From sequence record ON081052: a DNA stretch of 46,054 nt; one strand, given 5' to 3'. A program made the position numbers and the translations under genes. This DNA comes from Escherichia phage vB_EcoS_SCS31. Positions 18,846 to 46,054 of this stretch are shown here, piece by piece. Every line of letters starts with the position of its first letter. Positions within the stretch are counted from its first letter, which is position 1. Below the pieces are notes generated by a model that did no database searches, was not told the DNA's origin, and saw only the letters and a program-made list of their open reading frames with translations.

Positions 18846-18892
18846 ATAGCACGAATTGCTAAAGACGATTTAAAAAGATGGGGTATAGTTAC
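18846..18892 (+). promoter_or_regulatory. phage promoter, palindromic motif class
   Basis: ATAGCACGAATTGCTAAAG ... TATAGTTAC ... AATCGAAACGAGA. Confidence 0.5.
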
Positions 18893-28353: not shown

Positions 28354-28815
28354 ATGCATGTAATTACTGGTCAGATTCGCCGCGCTCCATTCACTAAAGA
28401 AGGTCGCAACGCTAACGGTAACTGGAAAATGTTCGCCATCGAGATGAGCGAATCATACAAGACTAAAGATGGCGAGCGTAAGTACAGTAATTACCGGATT
28501 ACGATGTTTGCCAGTGAGGCGCAGATTAGTTGGTATGATGAAGCATTTCAGGAAGGAAAAGTTATTTCTGTTAGTGGTGATTCATTGGCGGTTAATGAGC
28601 GTGAGCATAATGGAAAGGTTTATATTACGCTTGAGTTGCAGAATCCTCGATTGATGTTTAGCCAGCGCGGCAGTGAATTAGCTACACAGCAACAGCGCCA
28701 GCAGCATCAGCAACAGCAGCGGCAGCAACCACAGCATCAAAGCCAGTTTGAAGACGATATTCCGTTTGCTCCTATTGGTCTTCAGTACGGTATGTCAAAT
28801 ATTTATGTACTATAA
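28354..28815 (+). CDS. ssb: single-stranded DNA-binding protein
   Basis: Gln-rich linker and C-terminal acidic tail ending DDIPF-like (FEDDIPFAPIG), a hallmark of SSB. Confidence 0.65.
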   Translation: MHVITGQIRRAPFTKEGRNANGNWKMFAIEMSESYKTKDGERKYSNYRITMFASEAQISWYDEAFQEGKVISVSGDSLAVNEREHNGKVYITLELQNPRLMFSQRGSELATQQQRQQHQQQQRQQPQHQSQFEDDIPFAPIGLQYGMSNIYVL

Positions 28816-32139: not shown

Positions 32140-32162
32140 TAAAAAAACCTCCCTAAGGAGGT
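32140..32162 (-). terminator. rho-independent terminator (minus strand)
   Basis: Hairpin CCTCCCTAAGGAGG with T-run on minus strand after primase stop. Confidence 0.55.
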
Positions 32163-33088
32163 TAGTTAGTCAATAAATCGCTTGCCTTGTATATTCGCTT
32201 CCTGATGCCGCTCTTGAATGAGTATTCATCATTTGGTATTACCACGTCAATGTTCCTGTCATCCGCAACGCAAAGCAACTCCCTGTCAAGACGAGTACAA
32301 GCGACCCTTAATTTGAAATCCTTTAGCGCGTAAGCAACCATTTCCATGTTGTAACTGGAGTGGCAAACAAGTACACAGCTGTTACCAGTAGCAAGATGAA
32401 CGTGAACACCATCAATCCAATTATCGGCAAGATAAGCATACTCACTATCCTTAAAGGCACCAATAACAGCAATAGACTGGCGAGTATAATCTTTTGCAGC
32501 ATAACCAACGCCTCCATCTTCATTGATAAACATTACATTGCACATATCATCTGATATGCCATCATTATAAGCCATAAAGCACGGTATTGCGTGTATTAGT
32601 TCGCCTGATCTTGTCCTGCCAACATCAAAACCAAACTCGCTATAGATACCCTCGTATATACTGAGTGGAGTTGATTCTACTCTTTCAGTCCTTTCCATTA
32701 TCTCTAAGCATCTTTCGTGGTCAATCTGAGCACCCATTTTGTAGAGTGATGTTCTTGATGATTGCTTGTTTGCTTTAGTTACAACCTCAACAGGAATTAG
32801 GTTCAACCACTCACCGAGAACGTCGATACATTCACTGAATGACTCCCCTCTCATCTTCTGTAACCACAGAATTCCATCGCCTGAGCCACACTGGTTGCAG
32901 ATAATGCCGCCATCACCTTCTTCGCTAACCTTGTTAGTCCAGCGGCCACGGTCGTTGCCGCCGCAATATATACATGGCTGATGCTTTTTGGTCTGGAAGA
33001 ATTTTGGGTCTGCGCCGCAAATCTGAACCATTGCGTCAGCCCATAAACCTTTCATCTTTTGTAGTACTTCTTTCTTATCGTGATTCAT
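32162..33088 (-). CDS. DNA primase (zinc-ribbon + TOPRIM-like, putative)
   Basis: CIYCGG ... CNQCGSGDG zinc-binding pairs near N-terminus; ATG 33088 with RBS GGAGGTG. Confidence 0.55.
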   Translation of the reverse strand: MNHDKKEVLQKMKGLWADAMVQICGADPKFFQTKKHQPCIYCGGNDRGRWTNKVSEEGDGGIICNQCGSGDGILWLQKMRGESFSECIDVLGEWLNLIPVEVVTKANKQSSRTSLYKMGAQIDHERCLEIMERTERVESTPLSIYEGIYSEFGFDVGRTRSGELIHAIPCFMAYNDGISDDMCNVMFINEDGGVGYAAKDYTRQSIAVIGAFKDSEYAYLADNWIDGVHVHLATGNSCVLVCHSSYNMEMVAYALKDFKLRVACTRLDRELLCVADDRNIDVVIPNDEYSFKSGIRKRIYKASDLLTN

Positions 33089-33750: not shown

Positions 33751-35745
33751 ATGCTTGCCGTAGAGAAGCTGGTTGCCAACTTCGATAAGAGAAGAATCAA
33801 ACAGATTCAGAAAGACTACTCATTTGGTGAGATAACACCTTACGAGTTTCAGTGCGTGACATTTGATGAAATCGGAAAGGCTATTGGTAAGTATGAGGCG
33901 CCATTTATAGCAGACCTTTCCGTATCTGCGGGTAAGACAATCATCTTGCCGATGATTGGAAAGCGCATGGAGCAATTAGGGTTGCCTTATATGGTTCTTT
34001 CTCGCCAGTCAGAGATAATCAGCCAGAATAGAGAGGAGCTTAGAAACTTCGGCATCCGTAATAGCGTCTATTGCGCTGGCCTTAACGTTAAATCAGTTTA
34101 CTACCCAACCATAGTGGCTAGCGAAGGTACGGCAGCTAACGGCTTATTTAAGGGGCTTGGTGACTACGTTCCGGCTGTTATAGCTATCGATGAGTGTCAT
34201 ATGGTTGATCACATGGATATCGTTGAGGCTGAAGAGAACGAAGAAACATTTGAGCAAATGAGCACAAAGAAAGGCGAGATGGTTTTTAAGGATGGTGAGT
34301 ATACTGGCTTAATAGGAACTGGTCGTTCGCAATACACACTAATCATTACTGAGATGAAACGTCGCTGCCGTGAGAAATACGGGCGGGAGCTTCGTATATT
34401 CGGCCTAACTGGCAGCCCGTATCGCAACAACGACCATATCGTCGTTAGTAACCCTAATATCCGTGGATTTTGGCGAAAGACGGTAATTCAGGTTCCAACC
34501 AATTACCTGGTTGATTTGGGATTTGTTGTGCCAACAGTTTACGGTGAAGTTGGTGATTTGGGTTATGACCTTGCTGAGTTTATGCCTGACGGAAGCGATG
34601 GTGTGAAAGACTTTGGCAAAAAAGAAATGAATGAAATGGAAGAGAAAATCCACCAAAGCCAATCCATGACTCAAAAGATTATGCAGTTCGCAGCCAATTT
34701 CATGGAGACTCGCAACTCTGCGCTTGTGACATGCTCCGGTAAACGTCACTGCGAGGAAGCAGCAGCGGCGCTTCCTGAGGGCGTGACTTGGGCTATAGTA
34801 ACTGACTCTACAGGTGAGAAAAAGCGACGTGAGATTCTAGCTGACGCTTCAGATGGTAAGTATAAGTTCATCTTTCAGATTGGCTGTCTCACAACCGGAG
34901 TAAATGTCCCGCCGTGGGATACGTCAATAATTCTTCGCAAGGTTGGTAGTATCACGCTCCTTATTCAGTTACTTGGTCGTGGAATGCGAATCCTCAAGAA
35001 GAAACACAAGGAAATGGGCATGGTTAAAGATGATCACGTGGTTCTAGACTTCGCAGGAACCCTTGATGATATGGCAGAATTATACTTTGACCCAATCATA
35101 GAAGAGGTTCAGGACCAGAAATTTAAGTCTACTCATGATGCTTGTGATAAGCCAAGAGTGTGCCCGGAGTGTTCTTACGAAAACTCCTCATTTTCAGGTC
35201 GCTGTAATAATGTGATTGCCGGTAAGCGATGCGAGCACTTCTTCAAGTTTAATATTTGTGAAGATGTAGAAGACCCACAGACAAAGGTTATATTAAAGAA
35301 GGGGTGTGGCGAGAAGAACGACATTGCTGCCAAAAACTGTAGATGTTGTGGTGAGATGTTAATTGACCCTAATGCAAAACTTTCCGGCAAGATGTACCGT
35401 CAGGGGGATTGGTTGCGAGTTTACGGATTTGGCATTGGTTTAACAAAGAATCAAACTGGCATAGTTGCCCGTTACGAAATCATGGCGCATAGTGGTCAGA
35501 AGTTCATTGCATATGAAACATTCTTTCCAGAAAGTGACCATCGAGTTTGCTCTGTTAAGTGGAAAGCATTTTGCCAGACTCACATACAGAACAAAACAGA
35601 GGCTTTTAGGATTGGTCGCTTGCGTAATGCGAAAATGATAATGACAAATGCCAGCCAGTTCCGTGAGCCAATGCGAGTGACTCATAGAAGAAATCAGAAA
35701 GGCCGGGATATTATAGCTAATAAATCTTTTACTATGGAGGATTGA
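33751..35745 (+). CDS. SF2 DEAD/DEAH-box helicase with C-terminal Cys-rich zinc-ribbon region
   Basis: DECH motif (AIDECHM), helicase-like segments, multiple CxxC pairs near C-terminus. Confidence 0.75.
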   Translation: MLAVEKLVANFDKRRIKQIQKDYSFGEITPYEFQCVTFDEIGKAIGKYEAPFIADLSVSAGKTIILPMIGKRMEQLGLPYMVLSRQSEIISQNREELRNFGIRNSVYCAGLNVKSVYYPTIVASEGTAANGLFKGLGDYVPAVIAIDECHMVDHMDIVEAEENEETFEQMSTKKGEMVFKDGEYTGLIGTGRSQYTLIITEMKRRCREKYGRELRIFGLTGSPYRNNDHIVVSNPNIRGFWRKTVIQVPTNYLVDLGFVVPTVYGEVGDLGYDLAEFMPDGSDGVKDFGKKEMNEMEEKIHQSQSMTQKIMQFAANFMETRNSALVTCSGKRHCEEAAAALPEGVTWAIVTDSTGEKKRREILADASDGKYKFIFQIGCLTTGVNVPPWDTSIILRKVGSITLLIQLLGRGMRILKKKHKEMGMVKDDHVVLDFAGTLDDMAELYFDPIIEEVQDQKFKSTHDACDKPRVCPECSYENSSFSGRCNNVIAGKRCEHFFKFNICEDVEDPQTKVILKKGCGEKNDIAAKNCRCCGEMLIDPNAKLSGKMYRQGDWLRVYGFGIGLTKNQTGIVARYEIMAHSGQKFIAYETFFPESDHRVCSVKWKAFCQTHIQNKTEAFRIGRLRNAKMIMTNASQFREPMRVTHRRNQKGRDIIANKSFTMED

Positions 35746-35746
35746 A

Positions 35747-36166
35747 ATGAAGATTACAGATAAAGAAGATTACATTGAGTTTTACCCGGGTGCTGTAAAA
35801 TCATGTCCAAAGGAGGATGACGAACAAATCTTTTGCTCTGATTGGGTTAAGTACCATTATCCGCAGATTGTTTACTGGCACACGATTAATGAAAATAAGA
35901 AGACCATAGGGCAAGCAAGAAAAGACCAGGCGAAAGGACTCCTTAAGGGCGTATCAGACTGCTTATTCCTGATACCTGAATCAATGCGAGGCAAATACCC
36001 TTTTGGAGCCATAGAGCTAAAGAGGGCAGGAAAAACTCAAGCAAGCCCTGTCAGCGATGAACAAAAGGTTTTCTTAAAAAGCGTAAGGGAATCAGGCGGT
36101 TTCTCTGCTGTAGCCTACGGTCGCGAAGGTTTTCTTGCAGCATTCAAAGAAATGATTTCAAAATAG
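35747..36166 (+). CDS. VRR-NUC-like nuclease (putative)
   Basis: SDCLFLIPE...GAIELKRAGK resembles D...E-x-K nuclease motif; stop overlaps promoter copy. Confidence 0.45.
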   Translation: MKITDKEDYIEFYPGAVKSCPKEDDEQIFCSDWVKYHYPQIVYWHTINENKKTIGQARKDQAKGLLKGVSDCLFLIPESMRGKYPFGAIELKRAGKTQASPVSDEQKVFLKSVRESGGFSAVAYGREGFLAAFKEMISK

Positions 36167-36209
36167 CACGAATTGCTAAAGAAGATTTTAAAGGATGGGG
36201 TATAGTTAC
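36163..36209 (+). promoter_or_regulatory. phage promoter, palindromic motif class
   Basis: AATAGCACGAATTGCTAAAG ... TATAGTTAC ... CATCGAAACGAAACG. Confidence 0.5.
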
Positions 36210-37985: not shown

Positions 37986-39122
37986 ATGGCAGTAGCAAAG
38001 ATTACCAACGATCAGTTAGCAGAAGAATTAAAAAACGGCCTGACTAACAAGGCGATCGCAGAGAAGTATGGCATGAACATTCGCAACGTTGAGCTTCGTC
38101 GCAGCAAGTTAGCTAAGCAGGGTGATTGGCATGGTAATGAAGGTATCAAGAAGCTAGTTCCGGACGGCTACTTGGTAAAAGGCACCTCAACAATGATTGA
38201 TGCGGATGGGAACGAGAAAATCAGATGGGTTAAGACTTCAATAGATAATGAGCGCCTTGAGGTTTTAATGGAGCAAGCTAGAGAAGCATTCTGCTCTGAT
38301 TTGCCAAAGGCTATCCCATCTGAATCACCGAATGTTAACTTTGATGATAACACGCTTGCGATGTATCCAGTTTTTGATTTGCACATTGGGGCGATGGCTC
38401 ACAAACATGAGTGTGGCGAAAACTACGATACAGCAACAGCAGAGAAGGTTATGAATGGTTTCTTTGACTACGCTGTAGATAAGGCTCCGAACTCAAAGAA
38501 TGCTGTACTTGGTATTGGTGGCGATTTCCTACATTACGATTCCCTGGAGGCTAAAACCCCGGCCTCAGGCCATATCTTAGACTCTGACAGTCGTTACGCT
38601 AAGATTGTTTATGTCGCAATCCGTTCAGTGCGACGTGCAATCTTTCGAATGATGGAGAAGCATCAAGTTATTGATATTAAGGTGATAAGTGGAAATCACG
38701 ACGAGGCAGGGATGGTTTGGCTTCGCGCTGCGCTTGCTGCATTTTATGAAGACGAACCGCGCGTAAACGTTGATGTTAGCCCAGCCGCAATGATGATGAC
38801 CAACTTTGGAACGACTCTTATTGGATACACCCACGGGCATCAAATGCGCAAAGCCGATACTCGACTAACTGTTATGGCAACTGATTTTCGTAAGTTATTT
38901 GGTCAAAGTGAGTATGTTTACACACATAGTGGCCACTGGCATTCGCAGAAGATTACAGAAACAAACTTGGGAATTGATGAGGTTCATGGGCAGCTTGGAA
39001 GTCCTGACGCGTACTCCGCAAATGGCGGCTGGCGCTCTCAACGTCAAGCGGCAGTTATTGTCTACCACAAAGAATTCGGTGAAGTTGGCCGATTCATTTG
39101 TCGCCCTAAAATGTTTAGCTAA
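37986..39122 (+). CDS. calcineurin-like metallophosphoesterase with N-terminal HTH-like segment
   Basis: Phosphoesterase signatures GIGGDFLHYD, ISGNHDE, YTHGH; N-terminal ITNDQLAEELKNGLTNKAIAEKYGMNIRNVELRR resembles an HTH. Confidence 0.55.
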   Translation: MAVAKITNDQLAEELKNGLTNKAIAEKYGMNIRNVELRRSKLAKQGDWHGNEGIKKLVPDGYLVKGTSTMIDADGNEKIRWVKTSIDNERLEVLMEQAREAFCSDLPKAIPSESPNVNFDDNTLAMYPVFDLHIGAMAHKHECGENYDTATAEKVMNGFFDYAVDKAPNSKNAVLGIGGDFLHYDSLEAKTPASGHILDSDSRYAKIVYVAIRSVRRAIFRMMEKHQVIDIKVISGNHDEAGMVWLRAALAAFYEDEPRVNVDVSPAAMMMTNFGTTLIGYTHGHQMRKADTRLTVMATDFRKLFGQSEYVYTHSGHWHSQKITETNLGIDEVHGQLGSPDAYSANGGWRSQRQAAVIVYHKEFGEVGRFICRPKMFS

Positions 39123-39170
39123 TAGCACATTTTGTTAAAACAGTAGCCGCGAAAGCGGCTATTATTGTTT
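39121..39170 (+). promoter_or_regulatory. phage promoter, palindromic motif class (TTGTTAAAA subtype)
   Basis: AATAGCACATTTTGTTAAAA followed by hairpin TAGCCGCGAAAGCGGCTA. Confidence 0.45.
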
Positions 39171-41385: not shown

Positions 41386-41871
41386 ATGAAGCAGAAGCTG
41401 CTAATTAGCGCGGCTACGGCTACGGCAATATACATCGCAGCACCGCTTATTGAGCTCGTAGAGGGTGTGGAAAACAAGCCTTACATGGACATTGCTGGAA
41501 TCCCTACTGTTTGCTCTGGCGTTACTGGCCCTGACGTTGTTTGGGGTAAGACCTACAGCAACAGGGAATGCCGGAACTTACTGGAGAAGCACATTCAGAT
41601 TCATGCCAGGCATGTTCAGAATGCAGTTACCTACCCAATCGCACCTCAGACAAGAGCGGCTTTAATCAGCTTTAGCTACAACGTTGGTGGAAATGCGATG
41701 AGGAATTCAACGGCAGTTCGACTTATTAATCAGGGTAAAGTTGAGCAGGGTTGCAATGCTCTCGGGATGTGGAATAAGGCTCGGGTTAACGGAAAGCTAA
41801 AGGTAGTTAAAGGCCTGGTTAACAGGAGAAACGAGGAGATTAAGTTATGCTTAAGTGGATTGCAGCGTTAG
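41386..41871 (+). CDS. SAR endolysin (lysozyme-like)
   Basis: N-terminal weakly hydrophobic signal-anchor-release-like segment, then E...D...T lysozyme-like region (ELVEGVENKPYMDIAGIPTVCSGVTG). Confidence 0.7.
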   Translation: MKQKLLISAATATAIYIAAPLIELVEGVENKPYMDIAGIPTVCSGVTGPDVVWGKTYSNRECRNLLEKHIQIHARHVQNAVTYPIAPQTRAALISFSYNVGGNAMRNSTAVRLINQGKVEQGCNALGMWNKARVNGKLKVVKGLVNRRNEEIKLCLSGLQR

Positions 41872-42236
41872 TAATGTGCATGGCTTTATCTGGATGCTCA
41901 GCAACTGAAGTCCTGACCGGATTGATTGGAAGTAAACCAGATGTCACTGCGCAGGTTGGAGCGGCTAACAATAAAGTCGGCGTTGGTGCTTCCGTTAGTA
42001 GCGACTCCAGCAATTCCAGTGAAGCCACTGTAAGGGATTCTAAGGTTGGGAGCCTGGATAGCTCAAGCAGAAAAAAGACCTCCGACAATTCAATTAAGGC
42101 ATCAACAATCACTGCCGAAAAGATTGAGATTACAAACAATGAATCATCATCACTACCGTGGATTGGTACTGGCGTTATGTTCTGCCTGGTTCTTATTCTT
42201 CTGGCAATTATCTTAAGACGTAAAAAAGCCCCTTAA
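41847..42236 (+). CDS. unimolecular spanin (T1 gp11-like)
   Basis: N-terminal lipoprotein signal with lipobox LSGC and a C-terminal transmembrane segment (VMFCLVLILLAIIL) in one 129-aa protein. Confidence 0.6.
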   Translation: MLKWIAALVMCMALSGCSATEVLTGLIGSKPDVTAQVGAANNKVGVGASVSSDSSNSSEATVRDSKVGSLDSSSRKKTSDNSIKASTITAEKIEITNNESSSLPWIGTGVMFCLVLILLAIILRRKKAP

Positions 42237-42252
42237 TAGGGGCTATATTTTT
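42222..42252. terminator. bidirectional terminator between lysis genes and minus-strand genes
   Basis: AAAAAAGCCCCTTAATAGGGGCTATATTTTT. Confidence 0.55.
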
Positions 42253-42586
42253 AGCTAAATAACTCGTCGTCAGTCATGTTTCCTATGTTCATCATTTCCT
42301 TTATGTACTTACTATCATAACCGTTCAGTGCTTCGAAGTTAAACTCAAAAGGCCTCTTCAAACTCCCTCTACTAACAAACTCACCACACTTACCATCAAT
42401 ATATCCTGAGCTTAACATCTTTGCGCAGAACTCCTTTGAAGCTGCACTGCAAAACTTCCGATGTGGCAAACCTGCCGCCTTGCTAAACCTCTCTGAATCT
42501 TTGTGCTTGTATATGAATCGCGCCAAATGCTGGCGCGTAAAATAACTGTAGGACTCGCAAAATCTGTATAAATCAAGAAGAAACAT
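42251..42586 (-). CDS. hypothetical protein (111 aa)
   Basis: ORF track; downstream of 42590-44173 on minus strand. Confidence 0.3.
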   Translation of the reverse strand: MFLLDLYRFCESYSYFTRQHLARFIYKHKDSERFSKAAGLPHRKFCSAASKEFCAKMLSSGYIDGKCGEFVSRGSLKRPFEFNFEALNGYDSKYIKEMMNIGNMTDDELFS

Positions 42587-42589
42587 AAA

Positions 42590-44173
42590 TCACCCCATTA
42601 CACGTGGATTAACATAAACACGGTCATCAATCATGCAAACGTAGTTACGTTCTTCAAGCATTGGGATTAAGTGGTCCTTAATCTTCGTCATTACACCGGC
42701 CTGAGATTCGAATGGCTTAACCTTTCTTGCTGACTCATACAGCGCGCGAAGGCTAACAAAACCTTTACCAGCCTTACCCATTTTCAAAGCCAGGTCGATA
42801 AGTTTATTCATCTCTGCGTTATCACCAGCATGACCTGCGGCATTAGCAGAAGATAAATATGTTTTGCTTAACTCGTTAAACATTAATACCGCCTCCTGCA
42901 TGGTTTCTAATTCAATCTCACGAGACTTTTTAGGATTGCCACCTTCTTCAGATACCCAATTGCGAACAGTATGAATAACCGAAGCTATACGGATTGCCTG
43001 CTTGTCAAATTTACCAAGTGCGCCTCGTAACATAGTGTGACTGTATTTACCTCCATCACGTAAGTGCGGTTCCATATCCTGGCGAGCACGGTTTAGATAA
43101 CGCATGGCTGAATCACTAATAGTTAGCTTAACATCCACCTCACTCATGATGTTGTGAATAAGTTTAAAGTAAGTCGCCTTAAGCGCTCCATCAATAGGTT
43201 CATAAGTTGAGCGACCTTCATCATCAACAAAAACACGTTCACCTAAGAATGATTTCTCACGAACAAGCAAAAAACGCTCTGATACACCGATACCGCGAGC
43301 ACCAGCATTCATGATTGCGTTGATTGTCTCATCTTGTGCAATTACAGAGATGCAACCCAGCGCAGTAAAAGACATGTTGTTTTCAGCGTTAGCACGAGCA
43401 ATAGAAACATCGCCAGAGTCCCATGCCTTAAGAACCAATTCACTGTTTGTCTTTTTGCTCCCGTCGCCATAAGTCATGCCTAATAATGAGTTTACAGAAG
43501 TTGCTTCATCAGATATTACAGCAAAGTTACCTTGACGGAAGTTAATTCGCGCAAGACCTTCTGGAGTTGTATCAGATACCGGAAAAACAACATCGCATAA
43601 CTTCTCTAACTTCTCCTCAAGATTCTCTTTATCCTCAAATAATCTCGCCATTTCAGAAGGTGATTGCTCCTGCTTCATTTCTTTAGCGAGAGAAGATAGT
43701 TTTGCCATAATCTTTTTTCGTTCACGCTTACGTTCCTCGTTGATTCTGTCTCGTTCAGCAATCATTGGCGCAGTTGCCAGGCTGTTAATTGCTGATTTAC
43801 CAGTTGAAGGAGGTTGGCTTGTAACAACATAAAGCGCGGTTGGCTGAGTTGTTCCGTGATACTCAACGGTAAAACGACCCAGCATTGCAGAAGATACGCA
43901 GCCTAAAAAGTGCATATAGGCAGAAGATGATGGGAACTGTACTGATCGGGCGATGTTGGCTGACAGCTTGCCTACCACATCAAAATCATTCCCGAGGCTT
44001 ATTACAGGATATTTATCATTGCAATTCTCAACCTCTACTGGGTCCTTCCAGAATGACTGAGCATATCGCATACCGTTCGCTTTAATTGCCACACGAAGCG
44101 GGGAGATGCCTTGCTGCTGCGCAATAGCCATAACCTGGTCAACACTCAACTTACTGGATTCGAACTCAAACAT
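42590..44173 (-). CDS. P-loop NTPase-like large early protein, function unresolved
   Basis: Walker A-like PPSTGKS and Walker B-like AVISDEATS; ATG 44173 with RBS GGAG. Confidence 0.4.
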   Translation of the reverse strand: MFEFESSKLSVDQVMAIAQQQGISPLRVAIKANGMRYAQSFWKDPVEVENCNDKYPVISLGNDFDVVGKLSANIARSVQFPSSSAYMHFLGCVSSAMLGRFTVEYHGTTQPTALYVVTSQPPSTGKSAINSLATAPMIAERDRINEERKRERKKIMAKLSSLAKEMKQEQSPSEMARLFEDKENLEEKLEKLCDVVFPVSDTTPEGLARINFRQGNFAVISDEATSVNSLLGMTYGDGSKKTNSELVLKAWDSGDVSIARANAENNMSFTALGCISVIAQDETINAIMNAGARGIGVSERFLLVREKSFLGERVFVDDEGRSTYEPIDGALKATYFKLIHNIMSEVDVKLTISDSAMRYLNRARQDMEPHLRDGGKYSHTMLRGALGKFDKQAIRIASVIHTVRNWVSEEGGNPKKSREIELETMQEAVLMFNELSKTYLSSANAAGHAGDNAEMNKLIDLALKMGKAGKGFVSLRALYESARKVKPFESQAGVMTKIKDHLIPMLEERNYVCMIDDRVYVNPRVMG

Positions 44174-44244
44174 CTTAATGCTCCATCTCGTTAATGTGCG
44201 GGTATTATATAACACCCGCTCAGTATGTCTTTATCTTTTAGTGC

Positions 44245-44598
44245 TTATTTGTATTGCGCCTCGAATTTGTAAGTCTCGCAGAGCGTCTTGAAGCCAACTT
44301 CCTCATCTCGGTAAAGCTGCCAGGCATTGCCTTCTTTGTCATAGATGTAACCAGCATTTTGGCCCAGGCCAGCGTGCATGTTTACCTGATATCTCTTTCC
44401 TTCCGCGAACACTTTAGAGACGCCACTCTTATGGTTAACCTTTGTGCAATACAGAGTCTTGGTCTTGATGTATTTGCCGCGCTCTGTAAGGTTCTTCCAT
44501 TTTCCATTAACCTTGATTTGCTCTACACCATCTTTAACGCGAGCCTTGAACAAATCGTTATCGCTTGAAACCCAGTGTTTTGTAATCGTAGTAGTCAT
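44245..44598 (-). CDS. hypothetical protein
   Basis: ATG 44598 with RBS GAGAGGG. Confidence 0.3.
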   Translation of the reverse strand: MTTTITKHWVSSDNDLFKARVKDGVEQIKVNGKWKNLTERGKYIKTKTLYCTKVNHKSGVSKVFAEGKRYQVNMHAGLGQNAGYIYDKEGNAWQLYRDEEVGFKTLCETYKFEAQYK

Positions 44599-44777
44599 TT
44601 TAAGCCCTCTCTTTCGTTTTCCACATAAATTTGTTTGGTACTGATTTGCGAACGATTCGCACAACAATCTTATCTGTCTTTTGCACTAAGCCGTAAATCT
44701 TGCCGTCAAGTGATGAGCGGTATACTGCCTCTTCCATCTCGTCGTAAAAGTTGTCGAACATTTCTCATCTCCCGTCT

Positions 44778-44832
44778 CGATGGAAAGATAATGCCGTATC
44801 TCACATAAATGCTTTTAGCAATTCGTGCTATT
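44778..44832 (-). promoter_or_regulatory. phage promoter, palindromic motif class (minus strand)
   Basis: Reverse complement reads AATAGCACGAATTGCTAAAAG ... CATTATC ... ATCGAGACGGGAGATG. Confidence 0.45.
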
Positions 44833-44975
44833 GCGCGCCTTTTGTATCGCCTTAAGCATAATCTCATGACTCTCAAGCAAGTCCTCGCGGAACCAGTCGC
44901 CGCAAGGCCAGCCCTTTCCGCTGTATGCGCTGATGACCTCGAGATCGAAATAATTTATCTCAGATGGTAGTAGCA

Positions 44976-45218
44976 TCATTTCACCTCATCAAAAGTTGCA
45001 ATCCCAGGAATAAACATTCCAACCTTCCAGCCTGCAATGGCAATCCATCCAGAATCGTGCTTGTGCGGTCGATCAGCGCCTTTAATTAACCACTCGTTCG
45101 GGATTGTCTTGCCGTTAATGATTAGAGGCTCAGCGTCGTATACAGAGCCTTTTACGAATGGTGTTAAGGCTTTCTTGTCAGTGCTATTGATAACGTTAGT
45201 GCAGATTATTTTAGTCAT
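44976..45218 (-). CDS. hypothetical early protein (80 aa)
   Basis: ORF track. Confidence 0.3.
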   Translation of the reverse strand: MTKIICTNVINSTDKKALTPFVKGSVYDAEPLIINGKTIPNEWLIKGADRPHKHDSGWIAIAGWKVGMFIPGIATFDEVK

Positions 45219-45402
45219 TTACAACCTCGTACTCACCTTTATAAACAGCGACCTCTTCATTCACATTGTTGACAATCACTGCTAAACAAAGAGCACCCAA
45301 ATATTTTACCACTTCGTACTCGCAGCCAAGCGTCAGACCATAGTCCTCACATGAACGTCCACTGCAATCTAAATCTTCGAATTTAACTAACTTAATTTTC
45401 AT
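45211..45402 (-). CDS. hypothetical early protein (63 aa)
   Basis: ORF track. Confidence 0.3.
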   Translation of the reverse strand: MKIKLVKFEDLDCSGRSCEDYGLTLGCEYEVVKYLGALCLAVIVNNVNEEVAVYKGEYEVVND

Positions 45403-45959
45403 ATCTCAATCCTCAAATAAATGGCAAGCATTCGACGCAGCCAAGCCCATCACAGCACATGAATTCATCTTCTGACTGGAACTGCTTTGCTAAATCAATG
45501 TCTAGCCTTCCGCGCAACACAAGGTCGGTGTAATCTTCATTAAGCCCAATCAGTGCGCACTCGTTACGTAACTCATCTTTATTCTTTTTCATTTATCCTG
45601 GCCTTTTAAATTATGACGCTCTCTCAGAACTTCAACCCATTCTTGCGCGTCATTCTCTCTCATGAAGAAACTTAACTTTGGGTACTTGTGAAACCCTTTA
45701 AGTTCAACTATCCAATGGCCACCTTCGTAACTATAACTAACTTTCTTCTCTGTCATTTTGTTACCTTTTGAGTTTTTTTTGTTATCGACATCTCTTCAAC
45801 GTACTCGCTACAACTCGGGATTTTACTCCCGGCCCGGCATCCTAACAAAAGGACCCGCTCGGCGCTTTGGTGGGTGAGGTAACGCTTCCTCACATTGCGC
45901 GGTATCATTTACCCTTTTTAGTCCCTTTCGGGAGTGACTCAGAGTCTGCTACCGTGTCG

Positions 45960-46015
45960 ATGAAATGAAGTATACGCACATCGATTCAATATGTCTTTAG
46001 CAAAAAGTGCTATTT
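45960..46015 (-). promoter_or_regulatory. phage promoter, palindromic motif class (minus strand), heading a long leader
   Basis: Reverse complement reads AAATAGCACTTTTTGCTAAAG. Confidence 0.4.
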
Positions 46016-46054
46016 ATCAGATTACCCAGAACCACTGGTATCATAAAGGCATTA

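Follow-up and report, generated by a model that had tools for sequence, protein, structure and literature searches.

What does the 527-amino-acid (aa) protein gp09 of Escherichia phage vB_EcoS_SCS31 (sequence record ON081052) do for the phage that encodes it? The stretch of DNA analyzed here, referred to below as the window, is 46,054 bp long and represents a complete T1-like phage genome (Drexlerviridae, Braunvirinae, Guelphvirus). Gene product (gp) numbers and RefSeq product names are those of the vB_EcoS_ACG-M12 record (JN986845 / NC_019404), to which the window was 100% identical over the compared stretch of 1,965 bp. An initial annotation of the locus described a minus-strand P-loop NTPase-like protein of unresolved function and suggested a replication initiator, a helicase loader, or an anti-defense or abortive-infection ATPase. 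Public records are inconsistent for this gene. The RefSeq name of gp09 (D861_gp09) is "DNA helicase," its GenBank name in JN986845 is "hypothetical protein," and its counterpart in the phage TLS record (AY308796) is labeled "yfiJ putative ATPase."

We propose that gp09 is very likely the replicative DNA helicase of this phage and that it belongs to the DUF3987 branch of the MCM-like (superfamily 6 [SF6]) AAA+ helicases. This reading is supported by family membership, fold, motif conservation, distribution across the phage family, synteny, and primase fusions in relatives. To call the function unresolved was an overstatement: gp09 already carries a helicase annotation, is recognizable as belonging to a described helicase family, and counts among the core genes of T1-like phages.

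Family membership of gp09

The Pfam family DUF3987 (PF13148) matched gp09 with an E value of 1.1e-40 and a score of 140.3 bits, compared with a gathering cutoff of 27, and residues 81 to 431 aligned to profile positions 3 to 350 of 364. A DUF3987-like identity, one of the checks suggested by the initial annotation, was thus recovered. The same Pfam tag was present on all 120 listed homologues, and the PHROG 2373 profile ("DNA helicase") matched gp09 with an E value of about 1e-247. In a profile search of 1.84 billion representatives, 6,510 family members were found at an E value of ≤0.001.

Other family assignments were rejected. SF3 membership (the P4 alpha/D5/viral Rep type), a second check suggested initially, was not borne out. 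An SF4 identity (DnaB/T7 gp4) was dropped because gp09 had no Pfam match to DnaB_C and its fold is AAA+. Membership in a helicase-loader family (DnaC/IstB or lambda P) was likewise not found, and neither DnaC/IstB-type nor DnaA-type Pfam families matched. A below-cutoff Pfam match to ADDT (E value of 0.036), located in the lid/linker region before the winged-helix domain, was discarded, and the NCBIfam search returned a spurious 17-bit match only.

The phage DUF3987 proteins have been classed as divergent SF6 (MCM-like) helicases by Kazlauskas et al. (2016), who predicted a replicative role, described a winged helix-turn-helix at the C terminus and frequent fusion or adjacency to archaeo-eukaryotic primase (AEP) or DnaG primases, and counted among them the dns protein of phage N4, which is essential in replication (PMC4889955). 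In a 2018 survey, DUF3987 is listed with other ATPase domains found in primase fusions in place of MCM, RepA, or DnaB (PMC5862659). More recently (2025), the PriCT-DUF3987 protein AgaPH of Seonamhaeicola was reported to be an oligomeric, ATP/dATP-dependent 5′-3′ helicase that requires both Walker A and Walker B and binds its own primase-polymerase (PMC11724360).

Conserved motifs and predicted structure

The longest reading frame of gp09 (minus strand, 42590 to 44215) would give 541 aa from a GTG codon. In the annotation, translation begins at the ATG at 44173, and a GGAG sequence (44181 to 44184) lies 8 nucleotides (nt) 5′ of it. Conservation was scored in an alignment of 35 sequences reaching down to 34% identity. 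Both nucleotide-binding motifs noted initially, PPSTGKS and VISDEATS, were located in the 527-aa minus-strand protein, and their core residues are invariant in the homologues: Q120, P121, P122, S123, G125, K126, and S127 in the P-loop and S221, E223, and A224 in Walker B. Downstream of these, V277, I278, A279, and E282 of VIAQDE are invariant, with Q280 and D281 kept in at least 90% of the sequences. G296 of GVSERF is invariant, as is its S298-E299-R300-F301 motif, including E299 and R300. We regard VIAQDE as a candidate sensor 1 and R300 as a candidate arginine finger, in a motif resembling the "SRF" motif of MCM. R260, located in a predicted beta-hairpin, is also invariant.

An AlphaFold2 (AF2) model built on the same alignment was of high confidence and had a mean predicted local distance difference test (pLDDT) score of 89.3 and a predicted template modeling (pTM) score of 0.87. 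In the fold search, the nearest structural relatives of the AAA+ core were MCM proteins, at 11 to 19% identity in the structural alignments. In the model, the core is followed by a helical lid and ends in a winged-helix domain (Table 1). Judged by topology, not by coordinate superposition, the beta-hairpin of residues 255 to 270 is a candidate pre-sensor-1 DNA-binding hairpin. The small helical N-terminal region (residues 1 to 65) had no family match. At this place, relatives carry a DnaG zinc ribbon, a DnaB_N domain, or an AEP primase, and the region of gp09 may touch a primase.

Table 1. Coordinates of gp09, its domains and motifs, and associated features (positions in the window unless a locus is given)
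Feature	Position	Strand	Remarks
gp09, DUF3987/MCM-like (SF6) AAA+ DNA helicase, 527 aa	42590..44173	minus	ATG start at 44173
N-terminal small helical region, residues 1-65	43979..44173	minus	AF2 helices 11-21, 25-33, 36-41; lineage specific
Walker A/P-loop TSQPPSTGKS, residues 118-127 (PPSTGKS 121-127)	43793..43822	minus	Invariant residues in alignment
Long antiparallel helical hairpin, residues 126-191	43601..43798	minus	66 residues, highly charged; prolongs Walker A helix; outside MCM core
Walker B FAVISDEATS, residues 217-226 (VISDEATS 219-226)	43496..43525	minus	After model strand 217-221
Predicted beta-hairpin, residues 255-270	43364..43411	minus	AF2 strands 255-258 and 267-270, just before strand 273-279
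VIAQDE (277-282, candidate sensor 1) and GVSERF (296-301, candidate arginine finger R300)	43271..43345	minus	Conservation; strands 273-279 and 301-305
C-terminal winged-helix domain, residues 451-527	42593..42823	minus	AF2 model
gp10, 111 aa, small winged-helix protein	42251..42586	minus	Starts 3 nt after gp09 stop codon
Bidirectional terminator-like hairpin	42227..42244	both	Between gp10 and convergent lysis cassette; 7-bp GC-rich stem, T runs on each strand
Inverted repeat GCGGGTGT-TATATA-ATACCCGC	44198..44219	minus	Loop holds -10-like TATAAT (44204-44209); 24 nt before gp09 ATG
Degenerate copy of Drexlerviridae direct repeat ATAGCACnnnTTGnTAAAA	44228..44248	minus	22 nt upstream of -10-like hexamer; overlaps gp08 stop codon
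ATAGCACnnnTTGnTAAAA, example sites	1306-1324, 2116-2134, 5966-5984, 18846-18864, 36163-36181, 39122-39140	plus	
ATAGCACnnnTTGnTAAAA, example sites	44813-44831, 45995-46013	minus	
Primase gp30	32162-33088	minus	RefSeq annotation
SF2 helicase gp28	33751-35745	plus	VRR-NUC nuclease gene directly after
Stand-alone winged-helix copies in Rtp-like phages	L008:618-839, L009:1132-1413, L022:929-1135, L015:131-322, L017:207-377, L018:218-385	minus	Strand as in those loci

Distribution, synteny, and association with primases

A tblastn search detected homologues of gp09 in 922 phage records, and in 901 of these the homologue was near full length. The records came mainly from T1-group phages of Klebsiella, Escherichia, Salmonella, and Shigella, and phage TLS and the Webervirus phages are included. 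Numbers of records with gp09 and with the primase were similar by genus, at 420 versus 469 for Klebsiella, 294 versus 316 for Escherichia, and 37 versus 37 for Shigella. The initial annotation had made its proposal depend on the lack of clear homology to a replication protein shared by all T1-like phages. Such homology was found throughout the group, and T1 itself encodes ST9, 55% identical to gp09 over its full length. Local gene order is also kept. In TLS, Rtp, and the Webervirus phage KP36, T1p07-like or other small genes are followed by the helicase gene, a small winged-helix gene, a terminator, and convergent lysis genes.

Relatives link this helicase to primases. Among proteins matching with E values of 1e-120 to 1e-142, one (P0155) is fused to a DnaG-type CHC2 zinc ribbon and another (P0185) to the DnaB N-terminal (primase-binding) domain, and P0231, a more distant relative (E value of about 1e-69), has a BT4734-type AEP primase as its fusion partner. 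Primase-polymerase fusions are common among the viral structural neighbors of gp09. In Salmonella phage ST1UNAM, which represents a 36% identical lineage, the helicase gene lies about 800 bp from a primase/SF2-helicase/VRR-NUC module. The fusion or adjacency typical of DUF3987 proteins and primases is thus seen in relatives, while the two genes are separated in the window genome. The fusions of DUF3987 with primases and with DnaB_N point to work at the fork together with a primase.

Two side observations came from the same surveys. About 21 records labeled "Campylobacter jejuni phage" (e.g., MG065688, MG065657, MG065663, and MG065670, corresponding to A110b, C4, A134, and A121) contain T1-like genes for the helicase, gp10, and the primase, with 72 to 87% identity to those of Escherichia coli phages. 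Their host labels look doubtful, and contaminating coliphages are a possible source. In some Rtp-like phages, a second, stand-alone homologue of the C-terminal winged helix of the helicase (38 to 53% identity) is encoded on the other strand, about 3 kb upstream. This homologue, which corresponds to the functionally unassigned family PHROG 7327, has no copy in the window genome.

A proposed role at the replication fork

The initial annotation had kept gp09 apart from the primase and the SF2 helicase of the phage, and the positions of gp30 and gp28 agree with this (Table 1). No polymerase gene and no DnaB-like gene are annotated in the phage genome. The gp30 primase has a T7-type zinc ribbon and matches positions 11 to 346 only of the 667-position PHROG 510 primase(-helicase) profile. 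By this match, gp30 looks like the N-terminal (zinc ribbon plus Toprim) half of a T7-gp4-like primase-helicase that lacks the helicase half.

For the oligomeric state and polarity of gp09, its partnership with gp30 and the host polymerase, and any role in loading or initiation, we infer the following. By analogy with AgaPH, gp09 would assemble as a ring, probably a hexamer. ATP would be bound by K126 of Walker A and hydrolyzed with E223 of Walker B, and the putative arginine finger R300 of the SERF motif would be supplied by the neighboring subunit. The hairpin carrying R260 may contact DNA, as its conservation and modeled position suggest. The ring would move along single-stranded DNA and unwind the fork, with a 5′-3′ direction on the lagging-strand template if AgaPH is a guide. 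Its partners would be the separately encoded T7-gp4-type primase gp30, the phage single-stranded DNA-binding protein (SSB), and host DNA polymerase III, the last because the phage has no polymerase gene of its own. In this arrangement, gp09 would serve as the ring helicase for gp30, in place of the SF4 domain of T7 gp4. The C-terminal winged helix, the co-transcribed gp10, or both probably provide the DNA or partner recognition needed for loading.

The gp10 partner

The 111-aa downstream partner reported initially was confirmed as gp10. Homologues of gp10 were found in 832 phage records, and in every annotation read, T1 included, the gene adjoins the helicase gene. None of the 85 homologues retrieved carried a Pfam domain, and those with a source name belonged to T1-like phages or bacterial records. 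A small open reading frame (ORF) upstream of the ST1UNAM helicase was considered as a relative and rejected (hhalign probability of 0.1%). The terminator arrangement downstream of gp10 is likewise annotated in T1 and KP36.

An acidic-aromatic motif, (M/I)SDDELF, marks the C-terminal part of gp10 and contains four invariant residues. It is terminal in the window gp10 (residues 105 to 111; 42251 to 42271), and about 20 residues are added in other genera. The phage SSB, gp33, has a similar sequence at residues 131 to 137 (about 28744 to 28764), FEDDIPF, which resembles the E. coli SSB tail and is in an internal position followed by 16 residues. SDDELF of gp10 and FEDDIPF of the SSB could be partner-binding peptides for replisome proteins. 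A plausible role for gp10 would be that of a DNA-binding or adaptor subunit of the helicase.

The upstream hairpin and its promoter-like cassette

An inverted repeat lies upstream of gp09, and such elements recur about 13 to 36 nt before the helicase start in loci L007 to L057. In many genera, arms of 8 to 12 bp flank an A/T-rich loop at a distance of 13 to 28 nt (mostly 15 to 24 nt) from the gene. Stems of at least 8 bp were present in 29 of 52 distinct helicase-upstream regions from Drexlerviridae, whereas shuffled sequences gave 3.2 on average and never more than 9. The position of the stems is kept across genera and their arm sequences are unrelated between genera. In Webervirus, the hairpin is only 4 bp long, and some Rtp-like phages place it differently relative to the -10 element. 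G-T pairs accounted for 26 of 212 stem pairs, a count made on maximal perfect runs that cannot reveal mismatch types. A series of A-T, G-T, and G-C at one stem position is suggestive of a sense-strand hairpin rather than a protein-bound palindrome.

Single-genome counts gave no significance. The window contains one TATAAT in a hairpin with a stem of at least 6 bp, the gp09 copy, compared with 0.5 expected, and about 100 hairpins with stems of 8 bp or more, a count that includes overlapping calls of one hairpin, compared with 77 ± 12 after shuffling, which is no clear excess. The support for the gp09 element therefore comes from cross-genome conservation only. The hairpin matched no Rfam entry, and two subthreshold matches in a scan of 41800 to 46054 (one located on the terminator, the other to a Lysine riboswitch within the ORF) were taken as chance.

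The element sits inside a degenerate copy of a direct-repeat cassette. The ATAGCACnnnTTGnTAAAA repeat family was described in phage TLS, with its function given as unknown (PMC11447400). In the window, 22 copies were found where 2.3 would be expected, and almost all of them point in the same direction as the gene that follows. When these and the degenerate copy upstream of gp09 were inspected together (23 copies), the TTGnTA of the repeat preceded a -10-like hexamer (TATAGT, TATAAT, or CATAAT) by 22 nt (once 23 nt) in 15 copies, and in most of these 15 a conserved leader (...CATCGAAACGAGAtGAG) followed the hexamer. At 22 nt, the spacer exceeds what a standard sigma-70 -35/-10 pair allows, and in several cassettes it holds an inverted repeat. 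The hairpin upstream of gp09 could serve to present a promoter, as an operator on the mRNA, or as an origin element.

Could gp09 also initiate replication?

The last of these roles would fit a self-loading initiator-helicase. In such a scheme, the winged helix of gp09, gp10, or both would recognize an origin, for example the inverted repeat in the promoter region, and the ring would then proceed as the fork helicase. Self-loading origin-recognition helicases are known from papillomavirus E1, simian virus 40 (SV40) large T antigen, P4 alpha, and SaPI Rep. No separate initiator gene, DnaA/DnaC-like gene, or lambda O/P-like gene is annotated in the phage, and gp09 combines a C-terminal winged helix with a small winged-helix protein that is always co-transcribed. 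The A/T-looped repeat found upstream of the helicase gene in many genera, with arms that change between genera, is compatible with the same idea, and the fold matches of gp09 include the mobile-element helicases Cch and the SaPI5 primase-helicase. These two are also origin-binding initiators.

Other observations argue for caution. No iterons or repeat arrays occur near gp09, and no convincing tandem repeats were found genome-wide, in line with the failure of the authors of the TLS study to find origin-type repeats across that genome (PMC11447400). The shortness of the Webervirus hairpin and the different position of the hairpin in some Rtp-like phages also count against an origin. Furthermore, the loop coincides with the -10 element of a promoter cassette found repeatedly across the genome, and because of this coincidence a transcriptional role is at least as likely as an origin role. 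We consider it unlikely that gp09 is a self-loading initiator of this kind. The initial suggestion of a replication initiator or helicase loader pointed in the right direction as regards replication, while its loader part found no DnaC/IstB-type match, the best folds being MCM. As a variant of the replicative-helicase reading, gp09 acting additionally as an initiator fits all the data and is computationally inseparable from it.

A more specific form, to which we give slightly less credence still, is that the operon of gp09 and gp10, together with the covarying inverted repeat of its promoter, constitutes a self-contained origin/initiator module. The ring would self-load at a hairpin or cruciform origin, guided by the winged helix or by gp10, and the SSB-tail-like DDELF of gp10 would couple it to the host replisome. 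If true, this module would supply T1-type phages with the origin and the mechanism of initiation that have long been missing, and it would be a bacterial-virus parallel to eukaryotic and archaeal MCM loading.

Evidence against the assignment and remaining alternatives

Several points weigh against gp09 as the replicative helicase. Its gene is located 9.5 kb from the primase gene, at the end of a leftward cluster beside the lysis cassette, and it is the SF2 helicase gene, gp28, that adjoins the primase gene. The 2024 paper on phage TLS treats the SF2 helicase beside the primase as the replication helicase and discusses that one only (PMC11447400). The Walker B aspartate, D222 (43508 to 43510), is replaced by Ala in 5 of the 35 homologues (ISAEAT). 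An Ala at this position beside an invariant glutamate is unusual in an active AAA+ ATPase. The model lacks the N-terminal OB/zinc-finger domain that defines true MCMs, Pfam MCM (PF00493) gave no match at an E value of ≤1, and searches of Protein Data Bank sequences with the single sequence and the 35-sequence profile returned chance matches only (E values of 0.26 to 7). For these three reasons, gp09 is MCM-like but not an MCM. It appears from the sequence searches that no DUF3987 structure has been solved. Transfer of mechanism from MCM is limited, because the 5′-3′ polarity of AgaPH is opposite to that of MCM. Finally, our literature search found no experiment on any Drexlerviridae member of the helicase family, and a search for T1-family replication-gene experiments, helicase escape mutants, and host dna-gene requirements yielded nothing usable.

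The position of gp28 beside the primase, together with its treatment in the TLS paper, would suit a scheme in which gp28 or host DnaB is the fork helicase and gp09 is an accessory translocase in recombination-dependent replication, fork restart, or packaging. The phage has annotated RecE/Erf/SSB recombination functions, and other proteins with an MCM fold are known to work in recombination, ComM being an example. T1-type phages replicate via concatemers, which also counts for such a role. The surroundings of gp28 suggest otherwise: a VRR-NUC nuclease gene directly follows it, and the pairing of a helicase with VRR-NUC is typical of fork-remodeling or repair helicases, not ring helicases. In addition, DUF3987 is fused to primases and to DnaB_N in relatives, and gp30 corresponds to the N-terminal half of a T7-gp4-like protein, a type of primase that normally depends on a ring helicase partner. 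On balance, a purely accessory gp09 seems improbable. An anti-defense or abortive-infection/exclusion ATPase, or a helicase loader, is the least credible option and can be set aside, given that gp09, gp10, and gp08 had no match to PADLOC-DB models at an E value of ≤0.1, that DnaC/IstB-type and DnaA-type matches are lacking, and that about 900 phages carry the gene at full length and in synteny, as a core gene, a uniformity not expected of a variable accessory gene.

The assignment of gp09 as the probable replicative helicase allows annotation to be cleaned up, with the gene named as a conserved MCM-like helicase of Drexlerviridae, phages that are widely used in studies of defense systems and therapy. 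A T7-type primase, an MCM-like ring helicase, and a host polymerase would together form a testable replisome model for T1-type phages. Besides this model, the further interest of the locus lies in gp10 and the upstream hairpin.

Comparison with known systems

gp09 most closely resembles the DUF3987 helicases AgaPH, N4 dns, and the SF6 protein of Mycobacterium phage Corndog, with which it shares a full-length Pfam match, Walker A and B motifs, and a C-terminal winged helix. The family is associated with primases, and gp09 and these proteins are alike in being predicted, or shown, to act as a mobile element's replicative helicase. Unlike the AgaPH type, gp09 contains neither a PriCT nor a primase domain, and its DnaG/T7-type primase is encoded 9.5 kb away. 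It also differs from other DUF3987 helicases in being followed by a dedicated 111-aa winged-helix protein that is confined to Drexlerviridae. Within DUF3987, biochemical unwinding and oligomerization are known for AgaPH only, whereas the branch of gp09 is known from sequence and a model.

With MCM, gp09 shares an AAA+ core in which a predicted beta-hairpin precedes the candidate sensor-1 strand, an arginine-finger-like "S(E)RF" motif, and a C-terminal winged helix. It differs in lacking the N-terminal OB-fold/zinc finger and in having a charged helical hairpin of 66 residues inserted after the P-loop. MCM moves 3′-5′, whereas the characterized DUF3987 helicase AgaPH moves 5′-3′.

Cch (SCCmec, DUF927) and the SaPI5 primase-helicase belong to another Pfam family than gp09, and their fold scores are far below those of MCM. 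They serve integrated elements or satellites, whereas gp09 serves a virulent phage. The likeness to T7 gp4 lies in the combination of a zinc-ribbon/Toprim primase with a lagging-strand ring helicase, gp30 matching the N-terminal half of the primase(-helicase) profile. The helicase of T7 has a RecA fold and forms an SF4 domain joined to the primase in one protein, whereas gp09 is AAA+ and MCM-like and is encoded by a separate, distant gene. The use of gp09 in place of the SF4 domain of T7 gp4 looks like a non-orthologous replacement.

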